A stretch of DNA of 64,000 bases. Source: Patescibacteria group bacterium (GTDB lineage Bacteria > Patescibacteriota > Patescibacteriia > Buchananbacterales > UBA6539). Both the position numbers and the translations under genes were made by a program. Of the stretch, positions 1,485 to 43,222 are shown one piece after another (position 1 is the first letter of the stretch; the number at the start of each line of letters is the position of its first letter). The stretch covers positions 38,552 to 102,551 of the forward strand of contig JBAZSB010000003.1 of assembly GCA_041662625.1 (NCBI GenBank), read 5' to 3'. Below the pieces are notes generated by a model. It worked only from the letters and a program-made list of their open reading frames with translations. It ran no database searches and was not told the origin of the DNA.

Positions 1485-2333
1485 ATGGCTTTCCGTAGTG
1501 GAAAAAAAGAAAAGTTTACCATTTTAGAGGAAATTTACCACGATGATACGTCTCCAAAAAAGTCAAAAAGGTTATTTCGGGACTATTTCCAAAACGCAAA
1601 ATTGGTTAATAATCTATTGGTCTCTGGCATTCTTTTTTTTGGCCTAGCCGCACTGGTGCTAGGTTTTTTTCAATTTCGCTACCAAATTAATAAGGATATT
1701 TTTGCTAAATTTCAGCCAAATGCAGCAGTTAGTGGGCCGGAAGATTTATTGGGACTAAAAGATAAAGATACTGACCAAGACGGGCTTTCTGACTATGATG
1801 AACTATATGTTTACCTTTCCAGTCCTTATCTCCAAGATACTGATTCTGATGGCATTAATGACCAAAAGGAAGTAGCGATAGGCAGCGATCCAACTTGCCC
1901 CGAAGGCCAGAACTGTTTTGCCTTTTGGAATCCCGGTTCGGCATCCACTCAAACTAATGATGCCAGCGATTTATTCTTAAGTAATCAGATATCTTCGCTT
2001 CAGTTGCGTGAAACCTTAAAACAAGCAGGAATGACTGATGATGAGTTGGCTCAATTCACCGATGAAGAATTGATGCAGTTATATCAAGAAGCCTTGGCTG
2101 GGATGCAATCAGGCAGTGAACAAACCGACACTGCAGCCGTTGATTTATCAGTGACTAATCCGGCGGATTTGACCCCGGATCAAATTCGGCAATATTTAAA
2201 AGAAGCTGGAGTTTCTAGCACTCTTTTAGATCAAGTCACTGATGAAGAGTTGATGAATCTGGCTAATGAATCTTTAGAGGCGCAAAATCCGGCCGCTTCG
2301 TCAAATCTGTCTAATACGAATGCGAATCAATAA
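1485..2333 (+). CDS. membrane-anchored hypothetical protein with thrombospondin-type-3-like Asp-rich Ca-binding motifs and two internal TDEELM repeats
   Basis: TM helix LLVSGILFFGLAALVLGFF; DTDQDGLSDYDE and DTDSDGINDQKE motifs; repeated xTDEELMxLxxE(A/S)L segments. First gene of the operon encoding the giant protein. Confidence 0.5.
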   Translation: MAFRSGKKEKFTILEEIYHDDTSPKKSKRLFRDYFQNAKLVNNLLVSGILFFGLAALVLGFFQFRYQINKDIFAKFQPNAAVSGPEDLLGLKDKDTDQDGLSDYDELYVYLSSPYLQDTDSDGINDQKEVAIGSDPTCPEGQNCFAFWNPGSASTQTNDASDLFLSNQISSLQLRETLKQAGMTDDELAQFTDEELMQLYQEALAGMQSGSEQTDTAAVDLSVTNPADLTPDQIRQYLKEAGVSSTLLDQVTDEELMNLANESLEAQNPAASSNLSNTNANQ

Positions 2334-2335
2334 AA

Positions 2336-5300
2336 ATGATAAAAGAAATTAAGCCAAAACTGAATTTGCCCGCCGCTACTCAGGAAGCTGACCAAACCAT
2401 TTCAAACAAATGGTTTTTAGCGTTTAAAAAAATCGTCACGGAAGTGGTTCTGGTGAGTATGGTTTTAAGTTTAATTACGCCAGCATTGATCTACCCGGAG
2501 CCGGCACGGGCATCTAATCCAACTGGTGCCCCGCCAGTGACCAAGCAATACCCGCCTAAGCCGACTGAAGTGCAAGTTCATGATGCTAGCGGGGTTAAAG
2601 TTATTCAAGATGAATCAGGTAAGACGCAAGCAGAAGTTAAAAAAGGGACTGATAATGTTACCGAAGCCCAAAAAAAAGATACCAAAGAGCTCACTAAATG
2701 GGAAGTTTTTAAGAAAAATTTGGATAAGATGTACCAGAAGTTAAGAAATGCTGTTAAAGTCGCGGCGGCTGAAGCTTTCAGTTATATGTTGAATACCTTT
2801 GCTTATGATACGGCGACTTGGCTGGCTTCTGGTGGTGAAGGCCAGCAGCCGATGTTTTTTACCGAAGATTGGGGTGAATATTTGACCAATTTGGTTGATA
2901 ACGCGGCTGGTACATTTTTAGAAAAGTTAGGTAACAATAGTTGGATCAATCTTAACCTTTGTACCCCTTCACTCGGCCTTAAAATTAGTATTGGTTTAGG
3001 CTTAGGTAATCTGCGGCGGCCTAAACAGCCAGATTGTACCGTCACTAAGATGATTAAAAATTGGAAGAGCTGGGCCGAGAGTCCTAATTTTTTGAGTCAA
3101 TTTGATGATATTTTTGATCCTAAGAGCAATGATATTGGCATTGCTGCGAAGGCTTTTGGTCTTTATTACCAAAAAGTCGAGGAAGATTGGTTAGCTGGTA
3201 TTTTTAGGCGCAAAGAAGGTGAAGGCTTCAAGTCAGTGGGTGATTCAATCGCCGATACCATTCTTACTCCCGGTACCGTAACAGCTGAAGGCGCTAAACA
3301 ATTAACGCGAACAGAAACCGGGTCAAAAGGGGAAGAAGTTAAAGTTGAGTATGGTAATATTTTCAATATCGCCATCGCGACTTTTATTAATACTTTATTG
3401 GGTAAACTTTTCGAACGATTATTTAAGAAAGGATTAGTCAGTTCAAAGGACGACAAGACCATTGATCTTTCCGGCCTTGGTAACCTTTTGGCCCGAGGGG
3501 CGACTAATCAGGATTTATATACAGGCGAGTCAGGTATTGAACTTTATAGCGGCGAAAAAGCGGCTCGATTACGCTTTCTTGATTTATTGCAAGCCGGTGC
3601 CAAGCAAGGTGGGGCTTATGATGTCTTAACCAAATTAGTTTATTGTTCTGATCCGGAGAATCCCGGACCGGATGAATGTGCGATCAAACAAGATTTTCGT
3701 TCAGCCATAGAAAGGAAATTAACTTTAAGAGAGGCAATTGATCAGGGTTTAATTGATGGCAATGCTCCTTTTGGTTTTATGGATTGGGATGCTAGTGCTC
3801 TTTACCGGGGTATATCTTATCGGAGCATTACGATTTTACGGACTTTTCGTGTGGTTCCAGTCGGCTGGGAAATTGCCGCCCAAACTATAAATAAATTTGA
3901 CCCTGGTAAGACTTATAGCTTGAATGATTTAATTGCTCGCTTCGCGGATGAAAGTTCAGATAATCTTTTCTATGGTTTAATTGACCCAGAATGGGTTTTA
4001 ACCTTGCCTGACCATTTTTGCAAATTGGAAGGTTACGGTTCGAAAGTTGTTTATGAAGGTGTAATTGGTGGTGATGATGCCAATAGTGATGGTGATTTTA
4101 CTGATGCTAACGATGTCCCACCCCAACGGACGGTTGGGCGGGCGGAATACTGCGCGGATTATCAAAGCTGTCTCCAAAAAGACGAGAGTGGTAATTGCCA
4201 GTATTATGGTTATTGTACTGAAGAAAGACGAATTTGGGATTTACAAGGTAAAGGCTGTAAACCCTACTTTAATACTTGTCAGACTTTTCAGCGCAGCGAT
4301 AATAAAGTTTTTAGTTTTTTGGAAAATACCTTGGACTTTAATGGCTGCAGCGCTGATAATGCCGGCTGCCAATGGTATTGTCAGGTCTTTAATCCTAGTA
4401 GTGATATTTGGACCTGTACTAATGAGCATATTGTAATTGATCCGGCCACCGGCGCAATTGATGCTGAACGTGTCTTAAAGCCCTGTAATTTGGCTGGCGG
4501 TTGTCTGGTTTCTACTAGTTGTGAAATAGCGGAAGGTGACAGTAGCTGTGTCGACAACACCAATGGCACTAATCTTTCTATTAGCAATTCTTGTAATTCC
4601 GGGTCAAGATGGTGGGTGGGTGATAAATGTATAATTAATCCTGCTGATGCTTTGTGTACGATTAAGCAGGGTGATGTGGGCTGTACTCTTACTGGCTGTG
4701 AATCGTTTGCTAATTTATTGCTTAATCCAAGTTTTGAAACCGCTGCTTCGCCTGGCAATCTAGCTGATAAATGGAGTACCAGTAGCGGTAGTTTAACTTA
4801 TTTTGAACGCGCAGCCGGGGCCAGTGAAAGAATCCATGCTGGGAAAAATAGTTTACGCTTTTTTAGCTACGGTTTATCTGTTAATGAAACAGTTAGTGCC
4901 GCTGAATTAGAACTACCAGTCGGCAATTATTATACTTTTTCCGGTTACGTTTATGATTATTTAAATGCCGGGGCAATTACTTTGGAAGTGGGAGGAAGTG
5001 GTGTTACCTCAGCTCAAAGCCGGGTGAGCACCAAAGGCAATGGCTGGCAGTTACTAACTTTTGATTTTTTAGTCGATAAGGAGAGTTCACCTGGCAGCGG
5101 CAAAGGAAAAGTTCAAGTAAAAATTATTGTTAGCGGTGATCAGGTCGGCGGGACAGCTTGGTTTGATGATTTCAGAATTACTCAAAGTTGTGTTGTGGAA
5201 AATGTCACTTTAACTTTGATTGGCACTGTTGGCGTCAATGAAAGTAAAATTCATCTAGATCGTGATGCCCAAAGTTGTGATGCCCAAAATGTCGGCTGTT

Positions 5301-8300
5301 CTGAATTAATCCGGACACTCCCGAATTTTGGCACTAATTTGGTGCCTAATTCCAGTTTTGAAGATTGGTCCGATCCTAGCGGCGTACCCCAAGGCTGGCA
5401 AACCGGTGAAAATTGGAACAGCGCTAACACTAGTTTCGAGCAGGCTGAAGGATATAGTGATAACTATAGTCTGAAATTGATTAAAAAAACCATTAGCACT
5501 AATGATGATAATTTTTCCCGAGATTTTGAAATTCCACTTTTTGCTTTAAAGCCCAATACTACCTATCGTGTTTCCTTTATGGCTAGGTCTGACCAAGATG
5601 CGGCTGCTAGTGACAGACTTTGGTATACAGAGATTTTATCAAACCATAATCCTGATTATTATTGCAGTTTGGATCAAGCTGAAAATTGTTACATCGGTAC
5701 GGTAGACGAAAATGAAGCACACTGTACCAGTCTTAATAAAGGGCATTGTGTATTTGATTATGATGGGGTGTTTATAGGCAGCCAGAGATTATTCCCACTC
5801 ACCGACGAGTGGCAGCAATTTGTTTCTGCTTCATTTACGACTCGTCACTTTAGTTATGATTTTAAATTTTCGATTTCGAGTCACTATACTAACCCAGCTA
5901 AACCACTTTATATCGATAATGTTCAAGTTGAAGAAGTGGAAACTAACAATGCGGCCGTTTCTAGTTACAGTGATTATGGCACGAAAAATTTAGTTTATCT
6001 TAAAAAACCGCCGGCCACTTTAGCCTGCCATGGCTATACTATTGACCGACCCAGCCCGGATGTTTTAACTGGTGTCAACCAAACCCAATGTAACGGAGAA
6101 AATATGGTCTGGCGGAAGTTCTGTGCGAATGCGACTGATGCCACTGACGCTGGTGAAGCTTGCACTAATAACGGTGAATGTGACAGCAACAGATGCAATC
6201 CCCAAGGCGCCAACGGCTGTGATGCTTCGGGTCAATTCTGTTGTCATTATACTGATTGGCCCGAGTGTTCTAATTTTGCCATGTACTGTCAGGAAGATGA
6301 AGTGGGCTGCGAACTTTACCGGCCTGTACTTGGCGGTCAGTCAATCCCCGCCAAAGTATCAATTCAAGATTATTGTCCGGCTGAATGCGTGGGTTACGAA
6401 GCTTATAAACAATCAACTAGTCATTTTGAAAGCCAGGAATCTTTGGAGTATTTTATTCCAAAAACAGCTAAAAGTTGTACGGCTAGCCAGGTTGGCTGTA
6501 CTGAATTTACCAATTTAGATGAGGTCGCTCGAGGTGGGGAAGGTAAAGAATATTATCAATATTTGCGTCAGTGCCGTAAGCCGGATCAGTCTGATGCCAA
6601 TTGCCAAAATTTTTACAATTGGCAGGGCTCGGATGAAACTGGTTACCAGTTGAAATTATATAATCTGACCGGCCAAACCCCAAGCGGGGGAGCACCCTTA
6701 GAGGTCAATACTGATCCGACGTTGTGGCCGACTTATTGGTGTGAGGTCAAAACCGATAGTGGTACTAATGGTCCCGATTGCTGTGATGGCCCAGAAGATT
6801 TAGCTGCTAATCCGTTCTGTAAAGAATTTTATGCCGCTAGTGGTGAGATTTATTATCGAATCTATGCCAATACCATCAGCTGCTCGGATGATTGTCATCC
6901 GTTGCGCCAGACGCGTTTGGAAAAAGATGAAAGTTTAGCTCGAGCTAATTGTGATAATACTAAGGGTACATGGGAGGGAGATGCCTGTGTTTATCACGCA
7001 ATACCGCAAGAAGGAACTCGTTGTTCAGCTAGCGCGGCTGGTTGCCGGGAATATCGCGGTAATGCGGGTGGCAATATTTTCACCGCTTTTGCCGATAATT
7101 TTGAATCCGGCGATACAGTTGGTTGGCGTTTTGGCGCCATCAGCAGCGAGGCTTTAAGTATTACCGGCCATTCAATCAAAACCCAATTACTCGGTTCTGA
7201 CACTGATAGTAATGGCACGATCGATACTTATGACAAAAGGGTAGTAACTTCTTGGGCCAGTTTATGGAAAGCCGGAACAACTGAATACATTAACGCTAAT
7301 ATTGTCTCCTGTACTGATACCAATTCAACCGACGTTCCATTTTGTGATACTACTCATACCAGTAATTGTTATGATCTGCAATTGGGTAAGTGTATTGCCA
7401 AGGAAACGGAGAATAATGAGACTTGCTACGTGGCTTTGGGTGAAAAAAGTTGTGGTGTAATGGGTAATGTTTTATTACCTAGTCGGACCTATCTGATTTC
7501 TTTCTGGGCCAAGAATGCCAGTGGGGTGGCAGATATCACCCTTGATTTGCTGGGAGCGGTTGATCCAGCGCCATTAGCTACTATCAGTCTCAGTCCCGAA
7601 TGGAATTATTATAGCCTCGGCCCATTTACTACTAGAGCTCAGCCTGATTTTGACTTAAGCGCCCGCTTGCGTTTCATAGGCTCAGTGAGAGACAGTAATC
7701 CCGATAGCCCTAGTCTTGTTGATTTTTATGTTGACAACGTGGAAATTAAAGAAGTGGCTGATTATGTTTATGTCATTAAGAATTCCTGGCAGACGCCAGC
7801 CAGTTGCGACACTAATCCTTGGACTTTGCCCCAGCCAACTCCCGCCCCGCAATTTATGCTTGGCTGTAAACAATATCTTGATTCTTATAGCCGGACCCAT
7901 AATTTAAAATCTTTTACCAATCTATGCCGCCTTGAGGCCGTTGGCTGTGAAGCTTTAATTGATACCTTTAATTTAACTTCACCTTTTGCCAAAGTCTTTA
8001 ATGAAAATGATGCTAATTCTGATGTCAGTATTCCGGCCGATCGGTTAGTTTATTTGGTCAATCGGACTAATTATCAGTGTCCTTCGACCAAGAAAGGCTG
8101 CCAAGCCGTTGGCCAGCCGACTATTAATGTTAATCAGGAAGCAGTTAATTATAAAACCGCTTATTTAATTAATGATCCCAATCAGTATAGTTCTTCCTTA
8201 TGTTCTAATCCTGAGGTGGGTTGTGAAGAATGGAGTACTGGCAATGGCTTTTCTTATTTCAAAGATCCGGGCCAACGGGTTTGTGAATACCGTTTAGCTC

Positions 8301-11300
8301 CAGGCCAAACTCAATCTAACTGGTTTAAATTTGGTTCAAGCGCTCAAACCGGCGATTGTCCTTTGGTTCAGCCATCCGTTGGTGTGCCACATCCGACTGA
8401 CAACTGGGTTGGCCTCTGTGCATCTGAAGCCAGCTCCTGTAACCAATTTATTGATCCGGTGAGTTTAATGAGTAAGAATTTAGTCTTCAATGCTGATTTC
8501 AAAACTAATGTGGTTACAACCGATACGCCTGATGTGCCGGACGGCTGGCAGGCTAATCTGACGACCGACGGTTTAGTTCAGTCTCTGAGCCTTCAACATG
8601 GTAATTTGTATACCTTGAGTTTTACCAGCAATAAGAATCTTTCTCTGGCAGATAATGATTTACATTTTGAAATTAGGAATTGTCCGCAAATTACTTCTTT
8701 TGATCATTCCTTAAATAACGTTTGTATTAATACTGTTACGGGGGAGCCGGTTCAGCCGCAGAAACTTTGTCAGAGTGATGACAATTGTGATGTGACTAAT
8801 CATCAAATTTGTTCGACTAATGTTTTGGTGATTTCACAAGGGGCTTATACCGGGGATAGTCGGACTTCCACTCAAATCGATAACTTTCCCCAAAATCAGA
8901 TCAGTTATTCTGGCAGAGTTTTTGTCACGCGTGATTGCAACGCTAAAATTATGATTACCAATGTGGGTGGGACGATTGAGAGTATTATTGGTACTGCCGC
9001 TAACAATTATACCGACGGACTGGTCAAAGAAGTAGCCTTAAGAAAAACCGACATTAATTATGTTTTAGCTGATTCGGTTGATAAGCGTAGTTGTAATGGC
9101 ATTGTTGATCCGGAAAGATATTGCGTTTTATTTAATGATCGCAGTGAGGTTAATTATAAATTGGGTGAAGATGACTTTAGTTACTTAGGTTTTGATGCTG
9201 ATGTGAGCGGTATTAATGTCAATAATGGTCTGCCGGTTTTACAATGCGCGGGTAACTGCGATTCTAATGCCGTTTTAAATGTTAGACCCGATCGAACCTG
9301 CGAAACCTGGCTGGCTTGTAACAGTTATGCCACCGTCGTTAACGCCGAAGGCGGGGAAGAAAGGCAGTGTTTAAACCTTGGCCTCTGTAATCTTTTGGCC
9401 GATGACGGTAGCTGTCTTAACTTTTTGGAAACTAGCCACGGCGACGCCCGAAAAGATTTTTATCAAGAACCCGAACAAATCCAAAATCTAAGCGGCTACA
9501 GTAAAGCAGGCTTGGAAGTCAGCGATACCTTTAATAAGACTATTTATGGCTATTACCCTTATGTGGAAATGTCCCAGGAAGGGGGAGCAACTAGTATTAC
9601 TAATAGCAACTTTGATTCAGTCTTTTCCGAAGGCAAAGAGCCGCTGGGTTGGGCCGAGTATGAATCTAAGGACAGCCAAGGTTGGCAAAATTTTAAATAT
9701 ACTATTGGTACTGATTTTAACTCGGCTTTGGAAGGTGGCTATTTGCAACTCAACACTTTTTATCAGGTTGTTTCCGAAGACGTTGATTTGGAAAAAGGAA
9801 CCAATTATATTTTGGGCGGCTGGATTAACACTTTGGAATTAAAGCATAACAACCTTAATGATTCCCAGCTTTTCACTCAGATTTGCTATAAACTTAATAA
9901 TCAGCTTGATTTAACTTGTCCGCCGGAATTGAAAGTTTTTGCTGGTTTAGGTTGGCAATATGTGACGGCGACATTCAACTCTGCTGGTAGCACTGCTTTG
10001 AAGATCGTACTGAAAAATAATGCCGGTGATATTTTGGCTTGTCGTGACGGCCATGAGGATACGGCGTGCGCCATCAGCGGTTATTCTTTGCTTGATGAGA
10101 TTTTATTAAAGCCAGTCTTAAAGGTAAAAAATCAGACTCCTGATAATTTGCGTGATTTTATTGCCCGGAGCTGCCGGCTTTATCCAGATTTTGATTCGTT
10201 AGCCTGTCAGTATTTTGAAGAAAATGTTTTGCATCGTGGTATTTTTGGCTACTGCCTGACGCAAGATCCAAATAATTTAAAACAGTGCCTCCAGTGGTGG
10301 CCAGTTGATCAGATTGGCGGCCAGTTAACGGATGAAATTTTGGCTTATAATATTCAAAGCCCGCTTTATTATTGTGTAGAGAAAGGTGAGAGACAAATCT
10401 TTAGTGAAGATACTGAATTCTCTTTTCTAGTTTCTGATTTTTCCGGTAATTTTACCGATGCTTATGGCCTCAGTGCCCAACTTGTACCTTTTGAAATATC
10501 TGAAGATTATCGGCCAGCTTTTCGTTACCCTTATGTCCGGCAATTTAGTGTTCGCCCCCAAATTTTCCCGCGTAATGATTGGCTTATTCCAGGTGTTGGT
10601 TTTAGACTCCTGGCTTTGGGCGATACGTTAATTGAAGTTAATATTTTTGGTGATCAGGGCCTTAAGAATGATCCTTTTGATTTGACCATTGGCCCAACTG
10701 GAAATAGAGGAATTTTGTTAGCTCCTTGGGGAGTACTAGTTGCGATCCCAGTTGAAATGCTTTACGCTTTTATTGCGGCTGATCATGGAGCATTAGATAT
10801 GGATGCACACTATATTGGAGAAATGAATGAAGGGATTGAGTCTTTGGGTCTTGGTGAAATTTTACCGGATAATGCTGTTGAACTTAATCTTTATTTCATC
10901 TGGTCTTGGCCTAACGGTATAAATCCGGAAAATATCGGGCGGGCCGAAAGTACCATCCAGACTCTGCGGCAAGTTGGTGATATTGCTAAGTTACTTTTAG
11001 CCCTTGGCGGGGCGAGTGCTAATTCAGCTCAACATGATGACGCCTGGGAAGAAGAAGGTGTTCCCGTATTTGGTATTTTGGAGGGAGAGGAGACGAGTCT
11101 CAATATTGTTTTTGGGTCGCTGGTTGGTGTCAAAATAGCGACAGAGCAGGATCCAATGTATAGTGGCATTGCTGAAGATCCGGTACCTGATATCCCGGGG
11201 GATATTTATGGTGGAATAGTAGTGATGGTGGAGGAAACTACCGATGGTGATTTGGCGCCGGGAATGAAACTTGATTTCATACCAAGTGAGGCCAAAGCCG

Positions 11301-12832: not shown

Positions 12833-12835
12833 TTT

Positions 12836-16366: not shown

Positions 16367-16381
16367 AACTATAAAGTAAAT

Positions 16382-17773
16382 ATGACTAATGATCAAAAAC
16401 AAAAAATAAATAATCTGATTAGCAAATTAAATGCCGATTTATCGGATATTAATTTTTTTAAAAAAACGCAGGAAGAACTAACTGATTTAATTGTTCAAAA
16501 CAGCGCAGAGCAAGCTTATTATTTGGCGATTTTTCTGGATTATTTTCTTAAACAAAGAAAAAATTTTGAAAAAGATTATCCACAATTATACCGAGATTAT
16601 CAGACGATTATTAGTAAGGCCAAATGGGTTTGCCTCCCTTTACTTTCGTTGCAAGAGGTTATTGGTTTATTTGAGGAAAATTTGGCTGAAGCTTTGCTTG
16701 ATCCTGATATTGTAGTATGGGAAAAATTAAGGGCATTTTTAGTTGCCCATATTTTACTTGATGAACGCGATAATATCAAAAGGGAACTGAGGGCGACTTT
16801 ATTGAGAAATAATCAAATTTTAACCCAAGGTGATATTATAGCGGAAAATCAATCTCATTCCGGCACAATTAGTAACTGGTTGCGTGATTATAACCAAAAG
16901 TTAGGAGCGGCAAAGTTAGAAAGTAAAAATATTGAATTGTATCAATATATCACTAATGATAGCAATATTAAGAAGTTGAACCCTGAAGAAAGAAGATGTC
17001 TAATTAGTTTATTTACTTTATATGAGAGGCTAAAGGCTTCTTCTTCAGAGGTGGCTGGTTATGAAGGTTCATTAGGCATATCTGATGAAGGAGAAGGTAA
17101 ATTTGCTATTATTTCGGATGGCGAAGTAGTAAGTCTTGATAAGAGATCAGAAAAAATGATTGAGCAAGCACAAGATATCATTGATGTTGCCTTAGGTAAA
17201 AAACCAGCTTCCATTTTGAAAAAATCAAAAGTTGTTGAATCACCAATTCAGTCAGTTGATAATGAACCGCCAAAACAAACGCTGATAGAAAAGGAGATTT
17301 TGGCCGCTTATCAAGGCGACCAAAAACAGCAGCAAGCTATTGCTAAAGAAGAAGCAAAAATCACTAAAAGTTTTGGTACTGACTTGATGAAGATCCGGCA
17401 AGAGTTTTTCCTTGCCGTTCAGAATAAGAATGTTAGCCGCACTATTGCCACTCTGAATATTTTAACTAAACAAAATGATCTGGAAAACTTCGTGAAAACT
17501 GATACTAAATTAAGTCAATTTCTAACCGCGATTTGGGAGAAGCGCTATGGTAAGGAGTTTACTGCCGAGTTTAAACAAAAGCCGGGTCAACTGAAGTTCG
17601 TCCGTTTATTCCTGCGCTATGTTTTGGAAGAACGGTTGGGACTTTCAGTCAGTGAGGCGGCACGAGTGGGCTTACAACTGGGTAATATCTTTGTTAGTTT
17701 GGGCCAGAAAGATTATAATAAAATGGCGTATTTTGATGTTGAGGCGAAAGCTTTTAATTGGTTTGAGGATTAG
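16382..17773 (+). CDS. hypothetical protein (463 aa), last gene of the giant-protein operon
   Basis: Long ORF, no TM helix, no recognisable motif. Confidence 0.5.
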   Translation: MTNDQKQKINNLISKLNADLSDINFFKKTQEELTDLIVQNSAEQAYYLAIFLDYFLKQRKNFEKDYPQLYRDYQTIISKAKWVCLPLLSLQEVIGLFEENLAEALLDPDIVVWEKLRAFLVAHILLDERDNIKRELRATLLRNNQILTQGDIIAENQSHSGTISNWLRDYNQKLGAAKLESKNIELYQYITNDSNIKKLNPEERRCLISLFTLYERLKASSSEVAGYEGSLGISDEGEGKFAIISDGEVVSLDKRSEKMIEQAQDIIDVALGKKPASILKKSKVVESPIQSVDNEPPKQTLIEKEILAAYQGDQKQQQAIAKEEAKITKSFGTDLMKIRQEFFLAVQNKNVSRTIATLNILTKQNDLENFVKTDTKLSQFLTAIWEKRYGKEFTAEFKQKPGQLKFVRLFLRYVLEERLGLSVSEAARVGLQLGNIFVSLGQKDYNKMAYFDVEAKAFNWFED

Positions 17774-17958
17774 GGTGGTATAATGGTAGGAAGGTAGGAT
17801 TGTAGATTGGGAGAAAAATTAAGTTCACATACAATCAACCTGAAGAAGTAATGAAAATGCTAAATAAAATGATTAACAATAGAACGTTAGACTAGTAGAT
17901 CTGTTAGGTTGCCTAATAAATTACCAACCTACCGATCTACAGTCCTACCGATCTACTT
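17774..17958 (+). mobile_element. degraded IVS-like element: GGTAG/CTACC-rich inverted-repeat arms enclosing only the last 18 codons of a four-helix-bundle gene
   Basis: 17817-17895 matches the 5' flank (aaattaagttcacatacaatcaac) and the 3' end (gaagaagtaatgaaaatgctaaataaaatgattaacaataga...) of the intact copy at 19222-19641. The right arm cctaccgatctacagtcctaccgatctac is nearly identical to 19683-19710. Confidence 0.6.
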
Positions 17959-18001
17959 ATTAACTTCCTGCTTGGGGACAGGGCAGAAAGGAAAAGATAA
18001 A

Positions 18002-19177
18002 ATGTCAAAGACTAAAGAAAAAAACCACATTTTTACTTCGGAATCAGTCAGCGAAGGTCATCCGGATAAAGTTTGTGACCAAATTTCCGATGCCATCTTG
18101 GATGAGCTGATTCGTCAGGACAAAAATTCCCATGCCGGAATTGAAACTTTAGCTACGACCGGTCTGGTAGTGGTGGCCGGAGAAATCAGAACGAAAGGTT
18201 ATGTTGATATTGCTAGCATCGTGCGAAGAACGATTAAAGAAATCGGCTATGATGATCATACTATTGGTTTTCATTGGGAAGATTGTGGCGTGATGGTGGC
18301 AATTGATGAACAAAGTCCAGACATTGCCCAGGGCGTGGATAGCGGCCGCGGCAAATTTAAAAAACAAGGCGCTGGTGATCAGGGTTTAATGTTTGGTTAT
18401 GCCTGCAAAGATACGCCCGAATTGATGCCACTGCCCATCATGTTGGCACATCAAATTGTTCAAAGACTCTCTCAGCTTCGGAAAAACAAAACAATGCCTT
18501 ACCTGCGGCCCGATGGCAAGTCAGAGGTTGCGGTTGAATATGTTAATAATAAGCCCAAGCGAGTTGATACGATTATTGTTGCTGCCAGCCACGACTGCGA
18601 AGTTGATGAAAAGAAAGTTGAAAGAGAAGTAATCAATAAAGTCATTAAACCGATTTGTAAAAAATATATCGATCGTAAAACCCGCTATTTCGTTAATGCC
18701 ACTGGTCGTTTTGTCAAATGTGGCCCGCCGGCTGACACTGGTTTAACCGGCAGAAAAATCATTGTTGATACTTATGGTGGTCATGGTAGTCATGGTGGCG
18801 GTTGTTTTTCCGGCAAGGATCCGTCAAAAGTTGACCGCTCGGCTTCTTATATGGCAAGATACGTGGCAAAAAATATTGTTGCCGCCGGAATTGCTGACCG
18901 GTGTGAAGTTCAGATGGCCTATGTCATTGGCGTGGCCGAACCAATCAGTATTTTGGTAGATACTTTTAGTACTGGTAAAATTTCTGACGAAAGAATTGTC
19001 AGTTTAATTAGAAAGTATTTTGATTTAACCCCGGCCGGGATTATTACCAAGCTAAATCTGTTAAGGCCAATTTATAAAAAGACTGCTGCCTACGGCCATT
19101 TTGGCCGCAAGGACCCGGATTTTACCTGGGAAAAGACAGATTTAGCCAAAGTCTTAAGAAAAGCAGCAGGTTTGTAA
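18002..19177 (+). CDS. metK: S-adenosylmethionine synthetase
   Basis: [34 protein letters not shown] is the canonical MetK N-terminus, with [12 protein letters not shown] and DTYGG motifs. SD-like ggaaaggaaaagataaaATG. The ORF-track start at 17909 lies inside the upstream repeat and is rejected. Confidence 0.9.
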
Positions 19178-19179
19178 AG

Positions 19180-19712
19180 TCGGTAGAACGGTAGGTCAGT
19201 AGGTTGGTAGAACGGTAGAGAAATTAAGTTCACATACAATCAACATAGCGCGCCTAAATAATAATTTATGAAATTATGGCGTTGCTAGTCGATTATAGAA
19301 AGTTGATTGTTTGGCAAAAGGGAGTAGATTTAGTTGTTGAAGTCTACAAATTAACTGAGTTACTTCCCAAGTCAGAGTTGTACGGTTTAACTTCACAAAT
19401 AAGAAGGTCGGCAGTTTCTATTCCATCAAACATTGCCGAAGGCCGAAGAAGGTGTAGTCTAGCCGAGTATAGACATTTTCTACAAATTGCCTTTGGTTCC
19501 GGTGGCGAATTAGAAACCCAGATAGAAATTTGTAAAAGGCTGCCAGGAATAAAAGAGTTCGACTATAGATCAGTAGATTTGCTGCTTGAAGAAGTAATGA
19601 AAATGCTAAATAAAATGATTAACAATAGACAGGTGGATTAGCAGATAGGTAGAACTATAAGGTTGTTTAATAACCTACTAACCTACCGATCTACAATCCT
19701 ACCGATCTACTT
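19180..19712 (+). mobile_element. intact IVS-like element: inverted-repeat arms (GGTAG-rich left, CTACC-rich right) enclosing a four-helix-bundle protein gene
   Basis: The left arm gtcggtagaacggtaggtcagtaggttggtagaacggtag and right arm cctactaacctaccgatctacaatcctaccgatctac are imperfect reverse complements. Same architecture as the degraded copy upstream of metK. Confidence 0.55.
19276..19641 (+). CDS. four-helix-bundle protein (23S rRNA intervening-sequence protein family, TIGR02436-like)
   Basis: About 120 aa. N-terminal (Y/F)xKL(I/K)VWQK, central IAEG(R/S), C-terminal MINNR. Paralog at 62933-63289. Confidence 0.7.
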   Translation: MALLVDYRKLIVWQKGVDLVVEVYKLTELLPKSELYGLTSQIRRSAVSIPSNIAEGRRRCSLAEYRHFLQIAFGSGGELETQIEICKRLPGIKEFDYRSVDLLLEEVMKMLNKMINNRQVD

Positions 19713-20855
19713 ATGACTGATCAAAATCAAAACCAAACTGATGATTTTTTCAATCTAATCAAGGAAGAACAGAAGGTTGAAAACCCCTTCGCTAATGATG
19801 AAATTTTATTTCGTGACAAAAGTGGTCAATTGAAGGTTTTAAAAGGTGGGGTAGTTTTGGATTTTGATAAGCAAAAAGTTCCTCAGCCACCAAGCAGTGC
19901 TCAGGTTAGTCCCCAGGTTGCCATACCAGTTAAACCTGTTCAAGTTAAAACCATTGAACCAGTTGAAGAAGAACTTATCAGCAAACCATTGAAGCTTGAC
20001 GAAGAGGTGAAGCGGATAATTGATAAATCCGGAATTCAATTGGAAACAGCTGAGGCGGATCAGCGTTTTAAAAATATTATCACCGCTCGACTCAAAGATA
20101 TTAGAGATCAAGTTCAAACCAGAGATATGCTTTTGAGTTCACCTTTGGTCGGTGGCATGGGGTTTGATTCACAAAAAGCTGATTCTATCTTAGCCATTAT
20201 TAATCAGGAGTTTGATGATTTGCATAGTCAGTTGAGGCAGTCGGTTAGTAATGAGCCGTTTTCTGATCTTAAAACCGAAGCGAAAAAACTTCTTGAAGAA
20301 CCGCTGGTTGAACCACCGGAAATAGTTTTCCAGCCGGCAGGGGCCCCAGAAGCTTCTGCGTCCGCCCAGACTCAACCAAAGATAGCACCAGTGATGGAAA
20401 CGAAAACTGAAGTTGTAATTAAAGAGCCAGTTGAATTTGAACCAGTGCCAGAAAGAGTCAGCATCAGTCGGCCGTTAGTGAGTCGAGATGAAACCAAGCC
20501 AAAAATTGAAGATGTTAAATTCCAACCGCGTTTAACTGGCCCAGTTGAAGAAATTAGATCAATGACGTTGACGGATTTCCGTCGCCTCGGAACAACGCCC
20601 CAGGAGGCCATTGAAAAGATTTTAGCCAAAATTGAGCTTTTGGAAGAAGAATCATTTACGCGAAAAGTTGAAGCTATCAGAGCTTGGAAGGAAAATGAAA
20701 TTCAGCAACTTTATCTTGAATTAGGGGATCAGAGTATGGAAGAGAAAAGACCAATTGCCGAAATTATCAATCGGCGAGCGCAAGAAAATATTCCCACTTT
20801 AAGCCAAGAGGAAGTTGAATCCATCATTGAATTAAATCAGAGGTTAAGATATTAA
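19713..20855 (+). CDS. hypothetical Pro/Glu-rich protein (380 aa)
   Basis: Long ORF starting immediately after the IVS-like right arm. Acidic and proline-rich, no TM helix. Confidence 0.45.
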   Translation: MTDQNQNQTDDFFNLIKEEQKVENPFANDEILFRDKSGQLKVLKGGVVLDFDKQKVPQPPSSAQVSPQVAIPVKPVQVKTIEPVEEELISKPLKLDEEVKRIIDKSGIQLETAEADQRFKNIITARLKDIRDQVQTRDMLLSSPLVGGMGFDSQKADSILAIINQEFDDLHSQLRQSVSNEPFSDLKTEAKKLLEEPLVEPPEIVFQPAGAPEASASAQTQPKIAPVMETKTEVVIKEPVEFEPVPERVSISRPLVSRDETKPKIEDVKFQPRLTGPVEEIRSMTLTDFRRLGTTPQEAIEKILAKIELLEEESFTRKVEAIRAWKENEIQQLYLELGDQSMEEKRPIAEIINRRAQENIPTLSQEEVESIIELNQRLRY

Positions 20856-20944
20856 AATAACAATTGACAATTAACTTTTAACAAAAAATGTGTTGGCAAT
20901 CATCAGTAGTTAATTGTTAATGGTTAACTGCTAACAGTTTAATT

Positions 20945-21406
20945 ATGCAGCAATTCGTCGTGCCACAATTTATCGATGTTGAAGATAAGGTCATCGGGCC
21001 AATTACGGTCCGGCAGTTTATTATTTTGTTAGTTGGCGGTGGTTTTATTTTTATTGCTTACAAATTATCTGATTTTACTTTATTTTTAGTAGAATTTATA
21101 TTTATTTTAGCTTTGACTGTTGGTATTGCCTTTATCAAAATTAATGGTCGACCGATTCATTATTTTTTTCTTAATGTTATCCAGACTTCAAAACGGGCAA
21201 AACTGAGAATTTGGCAAAAGATATTTTCTAATGCCGAACTTAAAGTTTATAGTAAAGTCGAAGTGCCTAAACTCCCGCCGCAAATTAGAACTAAAAACCG
21301 GGTGCGAGCTTCTCGGTTGGCCGAAATGTCTTTAATTGTTGATACCGGTGGTGTTTATCAAGGTGAGAAGGAGCCGCCGAGCAGCACGCCATTAGAAATT
21401 TATTAG
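20945..21406 (+). CDS. PrgI/VirB3-like small membrane protein of T4SS
   Basis: N-terminus FVVPQFIDVEDKVIGPITVRQFIILLVGG followed by two TM helices, the typical PrgI-family pattern. Directly precedes VirB4. Confidence 0.55.
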   Translation: MQQFVVPQFIDVEDKVIGPITVRQFIILLVGGGFIFIAYKLSDFTLFLVEFIFILALTVGIAFIKINGRPIHYFFLNVIQTSKRAKLRIWQKIFSNAELKVYSKVEVPKLPPQIRTKNRVRASRLAEMSLIVDTGGVYQGEKEPPSSTPLEIY

Positions 21407-21413
21407 TTTAATT

Positions 21414-22094
21414 ATGAAATCAAAAAAATTGGCCAATAAAAAAATTAGTGCCGTTACTCAACATTATCTTGATATTGCTGAAATTAAAGAAGATACGGTA
21501 GTCTTGAAAGATGGTACTTTGCGCGCAGTGCTTTTGGTTTCTAGCCTTAATTTTTCTTTAAAATCTGAAGAGGAGCAAGAAGCAATTATTTCCGCTTATG
21601 TCAGCTTTTTGAATTTTTTGGAATTTCCTTTACAAATTGTAATCCAATCAAGAAAATTAGATATTGATGGCTATTTGGGTCGCTTAAAGAAAATTGAGAA
21701 AGAGCAGACCAATGAATTATTAAGAATGCAGACTGCCGAATATCGTCAATATATTAGTGAGCTTGTTGAAATGGGTGATATTATGAATAAGCGATTTTAT
21801 ATTGTTGTCCCTTATGACCCTCTTACTGACAAGCAGAAATCTTGGTTTCGTCGTTTTATCAGTTTATTTACCGCTGCCAAGGAAGTCAAATTGAGTCAAC
21901 AAGCTTTTATGAAACGGCGCCGTGATTTGTTTCAGCGAGTTGAGCATGTTGTTACTGGACTAGCCTCAATGAGTTTGAAATCAGTGGTGTTAGACACTCA
22001 AAGTTTGATTGAACTTTATTATAATACTTATAATCCGGATGTTTATAATCAAGAAAAGTTAGTTGAATTAAACAAAATCCAAGTCGAAGAATAA
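21414..22094 (+). CDS. VirB4/TrbE-family conjugative ATPase, N-terminal (CagE_TrbE_VirB) part; ends at an in-frame TAA
   Basis: ...HYLDIAEIKEDTVVLKDGTLRAVLLVSSLNFSLKSEEEQ... is typical of the VirB4 N-domain. Same reading frame as the next ORF; only TAA-AAT separates them. Confidence 0.6.
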   Translation: MKSKKLANKKISAVTQHYLDIAEIKEDTVVLKDGTLRAVLLVSSLNFSLKSEEEQEAIISAYVSFLNFLEFPLQIVIQSRKLDIDGYLGRLKKIEKEQTNELLRMQTAEYRQYISELVEMGDIMNKRFYIVVPYDPLTDKQKSWFRRFISLFTAAKEVKLSQQAFMKRRRDLFQRVEHVVTGLASMSLKSVVLDTQSLIELYYNTYNPDVYNQEKLVELNKIQVEE

Positions 22095-22097
22095 AAT

Positions 22098-24029
22098 ATG
22101 GCTATTAAACCACAAGAAGTAATCAGAGATGAAAAGTTGGCGGCTTTGCCAATGGAGGAAAAACTGACGCCTGAGCAAAAAAAGAAAAAAGAAGAATCGG
22201 AATTAACGGTGGCTAAAACTGTTCTGGAAGAAGAGCGCATTTATCGTGAGGGAGTTATTTCGATAAAAGATCTAATTGCTCCTGCTGCCATGGAGGTAAC
22301 GCCGACCTTTCTTAAGCTGGGCAATAGGTATGTCCGGACCATTTTTGTTGTCGGCTATCCCCGTTATATTGCTGTTGGCTGGTTTGCCCCGATTATCAAC
22401 TTGAGTGTTGCTTTAGATATTGCCATGTTTTTCTATCCGGTTAAGTCTGATATTATTTTGAAGCAGTTAAAAAATAAAGTTGGTGCTTTAGAAGCTCAGA
22501 TATTGGCTGATCGGGAAAAGGGTGCGCCACGTGATCCAATTCGTGAGACTGCCTTAAGGGACATTGAAAAATTAAGAGATGACTTGACTCAAGGTGTGGA
22601 ACACTTTTTTCAATTTGGTCTTTATGTCACTATTTATTCTGAAGATAAGGAAAAACTTGACAATTTAACTGGTGATATCGAATCTTTGTTTGGTTCGCGG
22701 CTGGTTTTTTCAAAAAAAGTTCTCTATCAGGCTGAGCAAGGATTTAATTCGACTTTACCTTTAGGTAATGATGAATTGATGATTAGTTTTAATATGAATT
22801 CTTCGCCAGTAGCGTCTTCTTTCCCTTTTATTTCTTCTGAATTAACTTCTGATGAAGGAATTTTGTATGGGATTAACCGGCATAATAACAGTTTAATTTT
22901 ATTTGATCGGTTTTCCCTGCAGAATGCTAATACTGTTGTTTTTGCCACTTCCGGAGCGGGTAAAAGTTATACCATTAAACTTGAGGTTTTAAGAACGATG
23001 ATGCTGGGGACCGATGTGATTGTGATTGACCCGGAGCGGGAATATAAACATCTTTGCGATGCAGTTGGCGGTACTTACGTTAATATTTCCTTAAGTTCTG
23101 AGAGTAAAATTAATCCTTTCGATTTACCGCGCGCCGTTGGTGAGCAGCGGCCGGCCGATATAATTCGCGGATCGGTCATTACCCTTAAAGGTTTAGTCAG
23201 ATTGATGTTAGGCCAACTTACTCATCAAGAGGATTCATTAGTTGATCGGGCTTTACTCGAGACTTATGCGAAAAAAGATATTACTGCTGACTCTGATCTA
23301 GCTAAAATTGAAGCACCAATCATGCAGGATTTTCAGGATATTTTAGACGGCATGGAAGGCGGAGCTGATTTAGCCTTACGTTTAAAGAAATACACGCAAG
23401 GGACCTTTGCTGGTTTATTTAATAATCCGACCAATGTGGATATGAAAAATCAGCTCGTGGTTTTTTCAGTCAGGGATTTAGAAGATGAGTTAAGGCCGAT
23501 GGCAATTTATACGATTGTTAACTACATCTGGAACGTAGTCAGATCGCAGCTCAAGAAAAGGATTCTGATTATTGATGAGGCTTGGTGGTTAATGCAAAAC
23601 GAAGATTCAGCCAAATTTATTTGTGCCCTAGTCAAGCGTTGCCGTAAGTATTATTTAGGGGTAACTAATATTACTCAAGATGTCAATGATTTTTTGCTTT
23701 CCCCTTATGGTCAGGCCATAGTTAATAATTCAGCCATGCAACTTTTAATGCGTCAATCGCCAGCGGCAATTAATTTGGTTCAAAAAACTTTTATCTTAAC
23801 TGAAGGCGAAAAATACTTATTGCTCGAATGTGGCGTTGGCGAAGGAATATTTTTTGCCGGTGACAAACATGCGGCAATTAAAGTCGTTGCTTCTTATACC
23901 GAAGATCAGTTAATTACTTCTGACCCGCGCCAAATTTTGGAAATTGAGGAAGCAAAAAAAGAATTTGACCGGGTAATGGCCGGTCAAATTGATCAACCAG
24001 AATCAGAAGTAGAAGCAGAGACTGTCTAA
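22098..24029 (+). CDS. VirB4/TrbE-family conjugative ATPase, C-terminal ATPase part
   Basis: Walker A VVFATSGAGKSY, Walker B/DEAW motif RILIIDEAWWLM, C-terminal motifs of the VirB4/TraC family. Confidence 0.75.
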   Translation: MAIKPQEVIRDEKLAALPMEEKLTPEQKKKKEESELTVAKTVLEEERIYREGVISIKDLIAPAAMEVTPTFLKLGNRYVRTIFVVGYPRYIAVGWFAPIINLSVALDIAMFFYPVKSDIILKQLKNKVGALEAQILADREKGAPRDPIRETALRDIEKLRDDLTQGVEHFFQFGLYVTIYSEDKEKLDNLTGDIESLFGSRLVFSKKVLYQAEQGFNSTLPLGNDELMISFNMNSSPVASSFPFISSELTSDEGILYGINRHNNSLILFDRFSLQNANTVVFATSGAGKSYTIKLEVLRTMMLGTDVIVIDPEREYKHLCDAVGGTYVNISLSSESKINPFDLPRAVGEQRPADIIRGSVITLKGLVRLMLGQLTHQEDSLVDRALLETYAKKDITADSDLAKIEAPIMQDFQDILDGMEGGADLALRLKKYTQGTFAGLFNNPTNVDMKNQLVVFSVRDLEDELRPMAIYTIVNYIWNVVRSQLKKRILIIDEAWWLMQNEDSAKFICALVKRCRKYYLGVTNITQDVNDFLLSPYGQAIVNNSAMQLLMRQSPAAINLVQKTFILTEGEKYLLLECGVGEGIFFAGDKHAAIKVVASYTEDQLITSDPRQILEIEEAKKEFDRVMAGQIDQPESEVEAETV

Positions 24030-24056
24030 AAAATTTAAAGATTAATTATTAATTAT

Positions 24057-24647
24057 ATGAGTCGACGCAATAAAATAATTATCATCGTGGTGGTGGCAGT
24101 AGTTGTTTTATTATTAATAATAATATTTGTCTGGTGGCTGGGTCAAAGACAAAAATCAATCAGTCCGGGAGAAACAAATGCCAATGTGGGCCTTAATATT
24201 CCAGCAGGACTGCCGTCAGCCTCCACTGGCTTGACCAATCAGATTGAGCCAACTGCTTCCGAACCAAATCTAGAAGCTAGCCTCAAGGCCATTGCCTCAA
24301 CTTTTGCTGAACGGTTTGGTAGTTATTCTAATCAAGGGAATTTTTCTAATCTTGATGACCTGAAGGATCTAATGACTGTAAGAATGAAGAGTGCAATTGG
24401 TGATTATAAGGCCGATCAACAAGCTTCGATGGGCGGCACTGGCTACTATGGTGTTACAACTAAGGCAATTTCGCCACAAATTACTAATTTTGAAGAAAGT
24501 TTAGGCCGAGCCGAAATAATAGTTAAAACCCAAAGGCAAGAATCTTTCGGTAATACAACTAATCCTAAAGTTTTCTACCAAGATTTGAAACTAAATTTGG
24601 TCAAGACTGAGGCGGGTTGGAAAGTTGACGTCGCGCAGTGGCAGTAG
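24057..24647 (+). CDS. membrane-anchored hypothetical protein; possible VirB8/TcpC-like (NTF2-like) component
   Basis: N-terminal TM helix IIIIVVVAVVVLLLIIIFVWWL, then a soluble domain of about 150 aa ending in GWKVDVAQW. The assignment is an inference from position and size only. Confidence 0.3.
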   Translation: MSRRNKIIIIVVVAVVVLLLIIIFVWWLGQRQKSISPGETNANVGLNIPAGLPSASTGLTNQIEPTASEPNLEASLKAIASTFAERFGSYSNQGNFSNLDDLKDLMTVRMKSAIGDYKADQQASMGGTGYYGVTTKAISPQITNFEESLGRAEIIVKTQRQESFGNTTNPKVFYQDLKLNLVKTEAGWKVDVAQWQ

Positions 24648-24736
24648 TAAAATGGTACTACTAATTATAAACCACTAAGGGCGGGGAAGTGGTATAAAAT
24701 CAACATAGCGCTGCTTAAGATTAAAGTTAACAAGCT

Positions 24737-25399
24737 ATGTTCGATTTCAAGAAGTTATTTATTGATTTACTTTTCCCGATTGAATGTTTAGGCTGTGGTG
24801 AAAAAGAGCATTGGCTTTGCCCCGCCTGCTCAGCAAAAATTGAAATCAAGTTTAAAAACCAGCCGGAAATATTTGCCCCAAATCAGAGTTTAACCGGAGT
24901 TTGGTTAGCTGCTGATTATCGTCAGCCGCTTTTAATTAAAGTTTTGCATACTTTTAAATATAGCTTTGTTGTCTGTCTGGGTCAGGATTTAGCTGAGGTT
25001 TTAATCAGATTTTTGTCATTTAAAATCAAACAAAAAGAAATTTCTGGCTTTGATTTAGTCATTGCTATCCCATTAGCAAAACGAAGGCGACTTTGGCGAG
25101 GCTTTAATCAGGCGGAAATTTTGGCTGCTGAAATCAGTCGGCATTTTAGTTGGTCGAACAAATCAGATTTACTTTTTCGAAAGTATTATAACCGGCCTCA
25201 GGTTGGCTTGAAAGCCGTTGACCGGATCATTAATGTAAAAGGAATTTTCTGTGTTCAGCGTAGTGATTTATTAAAAAACAAGAAGGTTCTATTGATTGAT
25301 GACGTGGTCACTACCGGTGCCACGATGCAGGAATGTGCTAAAGTGATTAAAGAGGCTGGCGCCAAGGAAATTTGGGGATTAGCCGTGGCGCGTGGTTAA
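24737..25399 (+). CDS. comF: ComF-family (ComFC) competence protein, phosphoribosyltransferase domain with N-terminal zinc finger
   Basis: CLGCG...CPAC zinc ribbon; PRTase motif VLLIDDVVTTGATMQECAKVI. Confidence 0.75.
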   Translation: MFDFKKLFIDLLFPIECLGCGEKEHWLCPACSAKIEIKFKNQPEIFAPNQSLTGVWLAADYRQPLLIKVLHTFKYSFVVCLGQDLAEVLIRFLSFKIKQKEISGFDLVIAIPLAKRRRLWRGFNQAEILAAEISRHFSWSNKSDLLFRKYYNRPQVGLKAVDRIINVKGIFCVQRSDLLKNKKVLLIDDVVTTGATMQECAKVIKEAGAKEIWGLAVARG

Positions 25400-25446: not shown

Positions 25447-25533
25447 GGAGAGGTGCCGGAGTGGTCGAACGGGACTCACTGCTAACGAGTTATCCCTTAA
25501 CCGGGATCGCGGGTTCGAATCCCGCCCTCTCCG
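25447..25533 (+). tRNA. tRNA-Ser (anticodon GCU), class II with long variable arm
   Basis: GGAGAGG acceptor stem, anticodon loop CUGCUAA, variable arm TATCCCTTAACCGGGATC, T-arm GCGGGTTCGAATCCCGC. CCA not encoded. Confidence 0.75.
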
Positions 25534-27000: not shown

Positions 27001-27019
27001 TTTACAAAAAAATAAGCCA

Positions 27020-40049: not shown

Positions 40050-40145
40050 GACTTCCAAACATTTCTTTGGCTGTAATGGGACAACCTGGAAACAGTTAGA
40101 TAATTAAATCTGCTTAGATAATTTATTGTTTAAATAGTATATCGT

Positions 40146-43197: not shown

Positions 43198-43222
43198 TAA
43201 TTATAAATTATAAATTAAATTT

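Follow-up and report, generated by a model that had tools for sequence, protein, structure and literature searches.

We analysed a 64-kb stretch of a Patescibacteria chromosome (positions 38,552 to 102,551 of contig JBAZSB010000003.1, hereafter the window), in which a run of + strand genes at 1485-25399 encodes the parts of a type IV secretion system (T4SS). All open reading frames (ORFs) of this run were confirmed where a preliminary description of the sequence had placed them. That description had proposed a reduced, non-conjugative T4SS-like system of the episymbiont kind, and domain searches, structure prediction and synteny across ~85 loci now agree with it. We put at roughly three in four the probability that the locus is a chromosomal non-conjugative T4SS of the Patescibacteria type, derived from monoderm MPF_FATA machinery and laid out in the manner of class ABY1 (Buchananbacteria-like). 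The genes of the cluster, with lengths in amino acids (aa) and the basis of each assignment, are:

1485-2333, + strand: 282-aa TSP3-repeat membrane protein (Pfam TSP3_bac)
2336-12832, + strand: 3498-aa giant protein, with CBM_4_9 its only recognised domain (Pfam)
12836-16366, + strand: 1176-aa polytopic VirB6/TrbL-like protein (family-level TrbL matches, hhalign)
16382-17773, + strand: 463-aa soluble all-helical protein (structure model, synteny)
17909-19177, + strand: MetK, S-adenosylmethionine synthetase (three Pfam MetK domains)
19276-19641, + strand: 23S_rRNA_IVP four-helix-bundle protein (Pfam, 127 bits)
19713-20855, + strand: 380-aa soluble protein (large unnamed family, synteny)
20945-21406, + strand: 153-aa PrgI/VirB3-like protein (Pfam PF12666)
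21414-22094, + strand: 226-aa TrsD-like protein (NCBIfam)
22098-24029, + strand: 643-aa VirB4-like ATPase (NCBIfam CD1110, Pfam P-loop_TraG)
24057-24647, + strand: 196-aa bitopic VirB8/PrgL-like protein (AlphaFold2, Foldseek, hhalign)
24737-25399, + strand: ComFC-type protein (Pfam Pribosyltran and DZR_2)

The membrane core of the system consists of PrgI/VirB3, a VirB4 split into a TrsD-like protein and an ATPase, a VirB8/PrgL-like protein and an extended VirB6-like protein. The product of 20945-21406, for which PrgI/VirB3 homology had been proposed, scored 33.5 bits with PF12666, above the gathering score of 27. The VirB4 ATPase was likewise as described: the 643-aa protein scored 352.6 bits with NCBIfam model conju_CD1110 (cutoff 325), spanning model positions 177-730 of 752, and 101.6 bits with Pfam P-loop_TraG, and its sequence contains a Walker A motif, GAGKS, and a Walker B motif, LIIDEAW. 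The parts listed in the preliminary description as a minimal component set are all present, but that list missed the separate 226-aa ORF ahead of VirB4. This ORF covers CD1110 model positions 2-117 (i.e., the part absent from the 643-aa ATPase), resembles the N-terminal region of NCBIfam VirB4_plasma (E 2.5e-10) and the TrsD/TraD family (E 4.6e-6), and has orthologs that bear precomputed PF26593 (TraC-like) matches. It stops (TAA) three bases ahead of the VirB4 ATG, and 46 of 50 related loci likewise have it as an ORF of its own, 221-242 aa long. Because its model coverage complements that of VirB4 and it is a separate ORF in nearly all of these loci, we take it to be a free-standing VirB4 N-domain of the TrsD type and not a piece of a broken gene. 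The VirB4 orthologs in related loci, which were gathered via the VirB6-like gene, all come from Patescibacteria and are 74-95% identical to the protein here (95% for the nearest relative, locus L001, and 74-89% for the others).

The 196-aa protein encoded directly after virB4, previously listed as a possible VirB8-like bitopic protein, did not match Pfam VirB8, and a PDB profile search with its family matched only its transmembrane helix. An AlphaFold2 (AF2) model built with 49 homologs (mean pLDDT, the predicted local confidence score, 88) predicts a transmembrane helix at aa 3-30, a disordered linker, and an NTF2-like alpha+beta domain at aa 70-195 with four long antiparallel strands. The best Foldseek match to this model in the PDB was R388 TrwG/VirB8 (E 2.3e-4), followed by CagV, PrgL, an IcmL-like protein, Rickettsia VirB8 and TcpC; the matches to VirB8, CagV, PrgL and IcmL had E values of 2e-4 to 1e-2 and TM(target) of 0.4-0.67. 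Aligned by hhalign, the family profile also matched pCF10 PrgL (E 8.7e-5, probability 60%). Together, the predicted fold, the topology and the place after virB4 support a VirB8/PrgL-like component.

T4SS homology was found as well for the 1176-aa protein at 12836-16366, for which a VirB6/TrbL-like identity had been proposed. Of 42 members of its family scanned one by one, 16 matched TrbL/VirB6 PF04610 (best E 5.8e-6). All homologs are from Patescibacteria, many bear precomputed PF04610 (TrbL) or PF19590 (TrbL_3) matches, and one is a "type IV secretion system protein" in NCBI naming. The family profile aligned with pCF10 PrgH over 179 columns (hhalign E 0.0037), and we accept the protein as a putative VirB6 homolog on these remote but consistent similarities. 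PDB searches with the protein and its profile gave coiled-coil noise only, and the transmembrane domain had no tblastn match among 72,556 plasmids.

The transmembrane domain of the VirB6-like protein (~aa 1-345) is kept in all 85 loci compared; the hydrophilic tail (aa 350-1176) evolves fast and is not. Since the transmembrane domain is 73% identical to that of L001 but the whole protein just 43%, the tail is the fastest-evolving part of the cluster. The tail had been described as coiled coil; a coiled-coil stretch is indeed present, but so are an aromatic-rich region of globular look and an acidic, Pro-rich low-complexity end, and nothing in the PDB or Pfam resembles it in sequence. The tail is probably cytoplasmic because 11 K/R residues lie within the first 55 residues past the last transmembrane helix. 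Tandem in-frame repeats were seen at its lineage-specific end, an 18-bp unit in three copies (VEEHPV) at 15809-15862 and a 36-bp Pro-rich unit in 2.1 copies at 15890-15966.

Since these parts are homologous to MPF_FATA conjugation genes and two tRNA genes lie directly downstream, the locus might come from an integrative conjugative element or a plasmid transfer region that is incomplete or has decayed, and so represent ordinary conjugation machinery or what is left of it. Scanning every window ORF of 80 aa or longer against Pfam, however, revealed no relaxase, VirD4/TcpA coupling protein, VirB9/10/11, integrase or peptidoglycan-hydrolase domain, in line with the preliminary description, which had recognised no relaxase, coupling protein or VirB9/10/11. 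The sole relaxase-like match was a sub-threshold Relaxase_C hit (19.4 against 30 bits) in a protein of the type IV pilus locus. A classical conjugative system just outside the window had also been considered, and no relaxase, type IV coupling protein (T4CP) or integrase was found in the 8.9 kb upstream or the ~3 kb downstream that we checked, nor did the window contain att repeats derived from the tRNA-Ser or tRNA-Arg gene. Moreover, the core genes are all intact and highly conserved (as the VirB4 identities illustrate), the cluster holds the same chromosomal place beside ksgA in many species, and base composition is uniform across the window. We therefore consider a conjugative remnant very improbable.

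We next compared the cluster with its relatives. The contexts of five VirB6-like homologs (30-44% identity) had the same gene order, and a search of one genome per GTDB species returned at least 565 relatives, from which 80 loci were fetched; the window proteins were then compared by phmmer with all ORFs of 85 loci. The synteny check across related genomes that had been suggested at the outset thus returned the same order in relatives, all of ABY1 type. The conserved order (TSP3, giant, VirB6-like, 463-aa, sometimes MetK, 380-aa, PrgI, TrsD, VirB4, VirB8-like) is shared by dozens of ABY1 genomes (Buchanan-, Falkow-, Uhr-, Magasanik- and Kerfeldbacteria), and the fetched loci are labelled Buchanan-, Falkow-, Uhr- or Magasanikbacteria or "Patescibacteria group". 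Many GTDB-representative metagenome-assembled genomes titled "uncultured Gammaproteobacteria bacterium" (and others titled Pirellulales or Planctomycetota) also bear the cluster (e.g., L010, L011, L014 and L016); because these records carry a Patescibacteria-specific cluster, their titles are evidently mislabelled.

Downstream of the VirB6-like gene, presence was counted in the 50 loci of which 8 kb or more are visible on that side, and identities were taken against L001. In order of presence, the 380-aa family was found in 47 loci, PrgI and TrsD in 46 each, VirB4 in 42, the VirB8-like protein in 40, the 463-aa family in 35 and MetK in 17. Identity to L001 fell from 95% for both VirB4 and TrsD through 90% for PrgI, 82% for the VirB8-like protein, 71% for the 380-aa protein, 63% for the giant protein and 54% for the 463-aa protein to 43% for the VirB6-like protein.

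Upstream of the VirB6-like gene lie the two surface genes, and here too the preliminary description, which had reported a CBM-bearing 3498-aa protein and a Ca-binding-repeat membrane protein, proved right, both domains scoring above their cutoffs. TSP3_bac reached 35.2 bits (cutoff 25) in the 282-aa protein, which has a single N-terminal transmembrane helix at aa 44-62 by hydropathy and C-terminal helical "TDEEL" motifs. CBM_4_9 reached 29.8 bits (against 25.9) at aa 1001-1089 of the giant protein, inside one of the variable blocks that are interleaved with conserved blocks along its length. The conserved blocks include aa 200-700, 1300-1600, 1800-2000, 2200-2400, 2600-2700 and 3300-3400. The giant protein is Cys-rich; it has a Sec-type signal peptide or anchor at its N-terminus (aa 29-52), lacks an anchor at its C-terminus, contains no DNA-level or tandem repeats and has no PDB sequence match. 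Several Falkowbacteria-type loci carry a gene for a membrane-anchored DsbA/thioredoxin-like protein between the VirB8-like gene and radA (L014:10929-11705, L025:19321-20175 and L033:18947-19861), which fits a need for oxidising surface proteins rich in Cys; we saw no counterpart in the window.

General ABY1 synteny alone could account for the proximity of the T4SS genes to the giant-protein operon (1485-12832), the two being functionally uncoupled. The housekeeping genes ksgA and metK are equally conserved as neighbours, and the upstream counts, from 60 loci of which 8 kb or more are visible there, include 15 in which no giant homolog was recognisable; L004 has an opposite-strand Peptidase_M23 gene in the giant-gene position. 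Nonetheless, the other 45 loci do have a same-strand homolog of the giant protein ahead of the VirB6-like gene (at least 1500 aa of it in view in 42), and this 75% co-occurrence extends across lineages whose VirB6 domains are just 35-49% identical. As far as the 10-kb view allows a count, TSP3 homologs precede the giant gene in 15 loci, and the TSP3 protein and KsgA follow further upstream wherever the view of a locus extends that far. In the window, all three genes share a strand, with gaps of 2-3 nt from TSP3 to giant and from giant to VirB6-like gene (3 nt for the latter), and adhesins occupy the equivalent position in monoderm conjugation systems (pCF10 prgB/prgC). Functional uncoupling therefore seems to us distinctly unlikely.

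Two soluble proteins complete the cluster. An AlphaFold model of the 463-aa protein (pLDDT 87.6) has two helical domains and no meaningful PDB neighbour, and its family is narrow (35 matches). By contrast in scale, the 380-aa family has 2,345 cluster representatives at E<=1e-3, shares a conserved C-terminal domain (~aa 225-380), and is always encoded directly upstream of PrgI; the protein has no Pfam, NCBIfam or PDB match, a profile PDB search included. Both families are conserved members of the cluster. Comparison by hhalign found no relation between the two, nor between the 380-aa family and pCF10 PrgD.

MetK, reported earlier as embedded in the locus, is indeed there, with its three Pfam domains at E 1e-43 to 1e-66, and metK holds the same cluster position in 17 of the 50 loci. 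No (S-adenosylmethionine) riboswitch precedes it, three tRNAs being the sole Rfam matches. In L004 (14312-16774), metK is followed by a gene for S-adenosylhomocysteine hydrolase (AdoHcyase). The 23S_rRNA_IVP (bAvd-like) gene occupies differing intergenic positions of the same cluster across genomes, in a way suggestive of selfish or mobile DNA, and is probably an inserted, mobile-like gene that does not belong to the machine. It occurs in several copies, namely at 19276-19641 and 62933-63289 of the window, at L086:3548-3910, and in L002, L009, L055 and L056.

Beyond these genes, the following features flank the cluster:

504-1370, + strand: KsgA, first gene of the + strand run 504-28240
25447-25533, + strand: tRNA-Ser(GCT) (Rfam)
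25549-26073, + strand: DUF5673 protein, between the two tRNA genes
26086-26162, + strand: tRNA-Arg(GCG) (Rfam)
26176-28240, + strand: RecG helicase in two ORFs of 274 and 406 aa (Pfam)
28924-30186, - strand: 420-aa bitopic PD40 beta-propeller protein (similar to a T4SS-linked protein in L003)
30448-31500, - strand: 350-aa protein with two transmembrane helices (2-TM) and the motif FCKLGEEW (homologs upstream of the VirB6-like gene elsewhere)

The ComF assignment at the end of the cluster was borne out. The protein at 24737-25399 combines a Zn ribbon (DZR_2) with a phosphoribosyltransferase fold (Pribosyltran), and scores 108 bits with TIGR00201 (E 4.4e-31), below the cutoff of 233. Among the 36 loci with at least 700 bp visible past the VirB8-like gene, 30 have a ComF (6) or RadA-type gene (24) after it, on the same strand and within ~1 kb. 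The RadA-type genes encode a Zn ribbon, a KaiC/RecA ATPase domain and a ChlI-like domain, as was confirmed for two. RecG, a downstream neighbour that is likewise conserved and is recognised by RecG_wedge and DEAD/Helicase_C/RecG_dom3_C, is cut in two by a frameshift in an A9 run near 26975-26983; reading through the run restores the RecG motif, and the L005 ortholog is a single intact ORF of 695 aa. The frameshift may have arisen in assembly, mark a pseudogene or reflect slippage.

Further downstream, the 350-aa 2-TM protein has a charged N-terminal region, two C-terminal transmembrane helices and no Pfam match. In 43 of 82 loci, a homolog immediately precedes the VirB6-like gene; here the gene is 14 kb from the VirB6-like gene, on the opposite strand and behind a ClpB/ClpC-like ATPase. 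It is thus a candidate for a displaced T4SS accessory component. The idea that it is a VirB2-like pilin-domain protein, such as lies beside the PD40 gene in L003, was rejected by BLASTP, and hhalign found no relation of the 2-TM family to the T4SS_pilin protein or to PrgG. The PD40 protein is 38% identical (E 3e-86) to an L003 protein encoded among T4SS_pilin genes downstream of the T4SS cluster, and a homolog is found downstream of the cluster in L073 as well (two other lineages in all), which makes it a possible accessory component. Because 2-TM and PD40 homologs adjoin T4SS clusters elsewhere, the functional module may reach past 25399 to about 31.5 kb.

The wider setting is a co-oriented chromosomal stretch rich in housekeeping genes, with GC of 0.34-0.46 and a steadily positive GC skew. 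The upstream flank holds genes such as those for LeuRS, FemAB and Sua5, the downstream flank those for GatC and GatA, and the rest of the window the ClpB/ClpC-like ATPase, an M48 peptidase, LemA, a complete type IV pilus locus, LigA and GatC. Scanning for consensus sequences of promoters and terminators gave chance-level results, so operon boundaries could not be set from them. A second small Ca-binding-repeat protein with TSP3_bac (118 aa, 34030-34386, - strand) adjoins the M48 peptidase and LemA. At 36186-41954 and 42028-58845, large proteins of 1287 and 602 aa precede the pilus locus; the 1287-aa protein was considered as a relative of the giant protein and rejected as unrelated. The pilus locus encodes PilM, PilO, PilB, a response regulator, PilT, PilC, several pilins and a prepilin peptidase, and is interrupted by YfhO and PMT-like glycosyltransferases.

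From the composition and conservation of the cluster, we infer that it probably encodes a contact-dependent translocon. VirB3, TrsD, VirB4, VirB8 and VirB6 would assemble into a translocon in the cytoplasmic membrane, and the TSP3 and giant proteins would form a host-contact arm at the cell surface, at the place of the pCF10 adhesins PrgB/PrgC. The 463-aa and 380-aa proteins, together with the VirB6 tail, may provide a cytoplasmic platform that substitutes for a coupling protein. Because there is no coupling protein, ComB and Ced offer a precedent, these organisms are nucleotide auxotrophs, and ComF, RadA or RecG neighbours are near-universal, our leading guess, held at somewhat under even odds, is that the system imports host DNA or nucleic acid, which would be handed to ComFC-, RadA- or RecG-type functions.

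Alternatively, the T4SS may export proteins or effectors into or onto the host, in which case the giant and TSP3 proteins would be adhesins and the 463-aa and 380-aa proteins receptors, chaperones or substrates. Wang et al. suggested that the Saccharibacteria system might instead export proteins (PMC10633639), effector translocators without a T4CP are known (Ptl, Brucella VirB), and the two cytoplasmic proteins encoded within the cluster are conserved. However, we recognised no effector-like genes or secretion signals, a monoderm cell has no Ptl-like periplasmic loading route, and the conserved downstream partners are DNA-processing genes and not effectors. We thus hold export to be rather unlikely, and leave what remains to other roles.

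A bolder form of the import hypothesis, which we regard as doubtful, is that the ABY1 T4SS is one two-armed super-cluster for contact-dependent "reverse conjugation", feeding an organism unable to make nucleotides. Its outer arm would comprise the TSP3 protein as Ca-binding anchor, the Sec-exported giant protein, the 2-TM protein and the fast-evolving extended VirB6, with variable blocks of the giant protein (CBM included) setting host specificity; this extracellular arm would stand in for the VirB2 pilin arrays of other classes. Inside the cell, the role of the coupling protein would fall to the 463-aa and 380-aa proteins, which would deliver the imported host DNA to ComFC, RadA and RecG.

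Several observations weigh against our main reading of the locus. The 1176-aa protein itself has no Pfam match, and the hhalign probability of its family against PrgH is just 9%; matches to the NTF2 fold of the 196-aa protein include proteins from outside T4SSs, such as ARC6/PARC6. No window ORF has a lysozyme, SLT, CHAP or M23 domain that would mark a VirB1-like hydrolase (an M23 gene lies near the cluster in some relatives), and none matches T4SS_pilin or TrbC as a VirB2-like pilin would. Another part of the genome could encode a T4CP; a survey of Patescibacteria found many distant VirD4 homologs (PMC12102498). The plainly unrelated housekeeping genes ksgA and metK share the conserved synteny, so adjacency alone says little about whether the giant protein, ComF or RecG cooperate with the T4SS. 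Finally, the essentiality of the T4SS of Southlakia epibionticum is independent of ComEC-mediated competence (2025 review, PMC12857230), which lends no support to a simple competence role.

Before that of Patescibacteria, no T4SS had been shown to be indispensable for its own bacterium to grow. The T4SS genes of S. epibionticum are essential for epibiotic growth (Wang et al. 2023, PMC10633639). That system resembles Gram-positive conjugative systems and has pilin genes and no recognisable coupling protein or relaxase (PMC10633639). A 2025 review describes Patescibacteria T4SSs as the "most exciting newcomers" and calls the role of extended VirB6 domains unknown (PMC12857230). Our comparison yields an ABY1 parts list (the giant protein and its Ca-binding partner, the extended VirB6, the VirB8-like protein, three unnamed families and downstream ComF/RadA) from which specific targets can be chosen for modelling of interactions and for genetic work in tractable relatives, and the DNA-processing neighbours sharpen the question of import versus export. 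The locus itself adds no new type of system.

Among Gram-positive conjugative T4SSs, whose VirB4 belongs to the same NCBIfam family (CD1110), pCF10 is collinear with the locus, its order being the prgB/prgC adhesins, prgH (VirB6), prgI (VirB3), prgJ (VirB4) and prgL (VirB8-like). A separate TrsD ORF ahead of VirB4 is likewise found in pGO1/pIP501 (trsC-trsD-trsE). Unlike pCF10 and pIP501, the locus has no PcfC/TraJ coupling protein, relaxase, PrgK/TraG hydrolase or LPXTG adhesin; its VirB6 is four times longer, with a hydrophilic tail, and its genes lie on the chromosome, mixed with housekeeping genes. A polytopic VirB6 domain joined to a large hydrophilic C-proximal domain is known from RvhB6 of Rickettsiales and TraG of the F plasmid (PMC12857230), but the tail here evolves faster than any other protein of the cluster. 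As in Helicobacter pylori ComB and archaeal Ced, which lack relaxase and T4CP, a VirB4-type ATPase is combined with polytopic membrane proteins, and the locus adjoins transformation-related genes (ComFC, RadA and RecG). The likeness to ComB and Ced is one of functional analogy only: ComB depends on outer-membrane VirB7-10, of which VirB7, VirB9 and VirB10 were not found here, and scores with CedB (45 bits, cutoff 700) and CedD (20.8, cutoff 600) were low, the CedB likeness being that of a generic ATPase.

The closest comparison is with the Patescibacteria clade itself (S. epibionticum SEML1_0006-0019 and the 2025 survey), with which the locus shares an MPF_FATA-like VirB4 with adjacent TrsD-like ORF, PrgI/VirB3, VirB6 and a VirB8-like protein, the absence of a nearby relaxase or T4CP, and a chromosomal context with ksgA, comF and recG. 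In that survey (Quinonero-Coronel et al. 2025, PMC12102498), the Patescibacteria VirB4 clade is sister to MPF_FATA; TrsD, PrgI/VirB3, VirB6 and VirB2-like proteins are widespread and relaxases rare; VirB8 homologs are almost confined to ABY1; and ksgA is common near virB4, ABY1 loci often having comF, recG and radA. VirB2-like pilin genes are frequent near virB4 in the clade, though not universal; in the window, neither a pilin array of this kind nor a VirB1-like hydrolase was found. The survey detected no adhesins and mentions neither giant proteins nor metK, and the TSP3-giant pair, the 463-aa, 380-aa and 2-TM families and the embedded metK are undescribed there. Relaxase-free T4SSs of the ultra-small, episymbiotic Patescibacteria, including the ABY1 link to comF, recG and radA, were thus known already, and the locus is a typical ABY1 instance of them; the conserved surface arm of TSP3, giant and VirB6 proteins, the 463-aa and 380-aa families and the 2-TM family are reported here for the first time.

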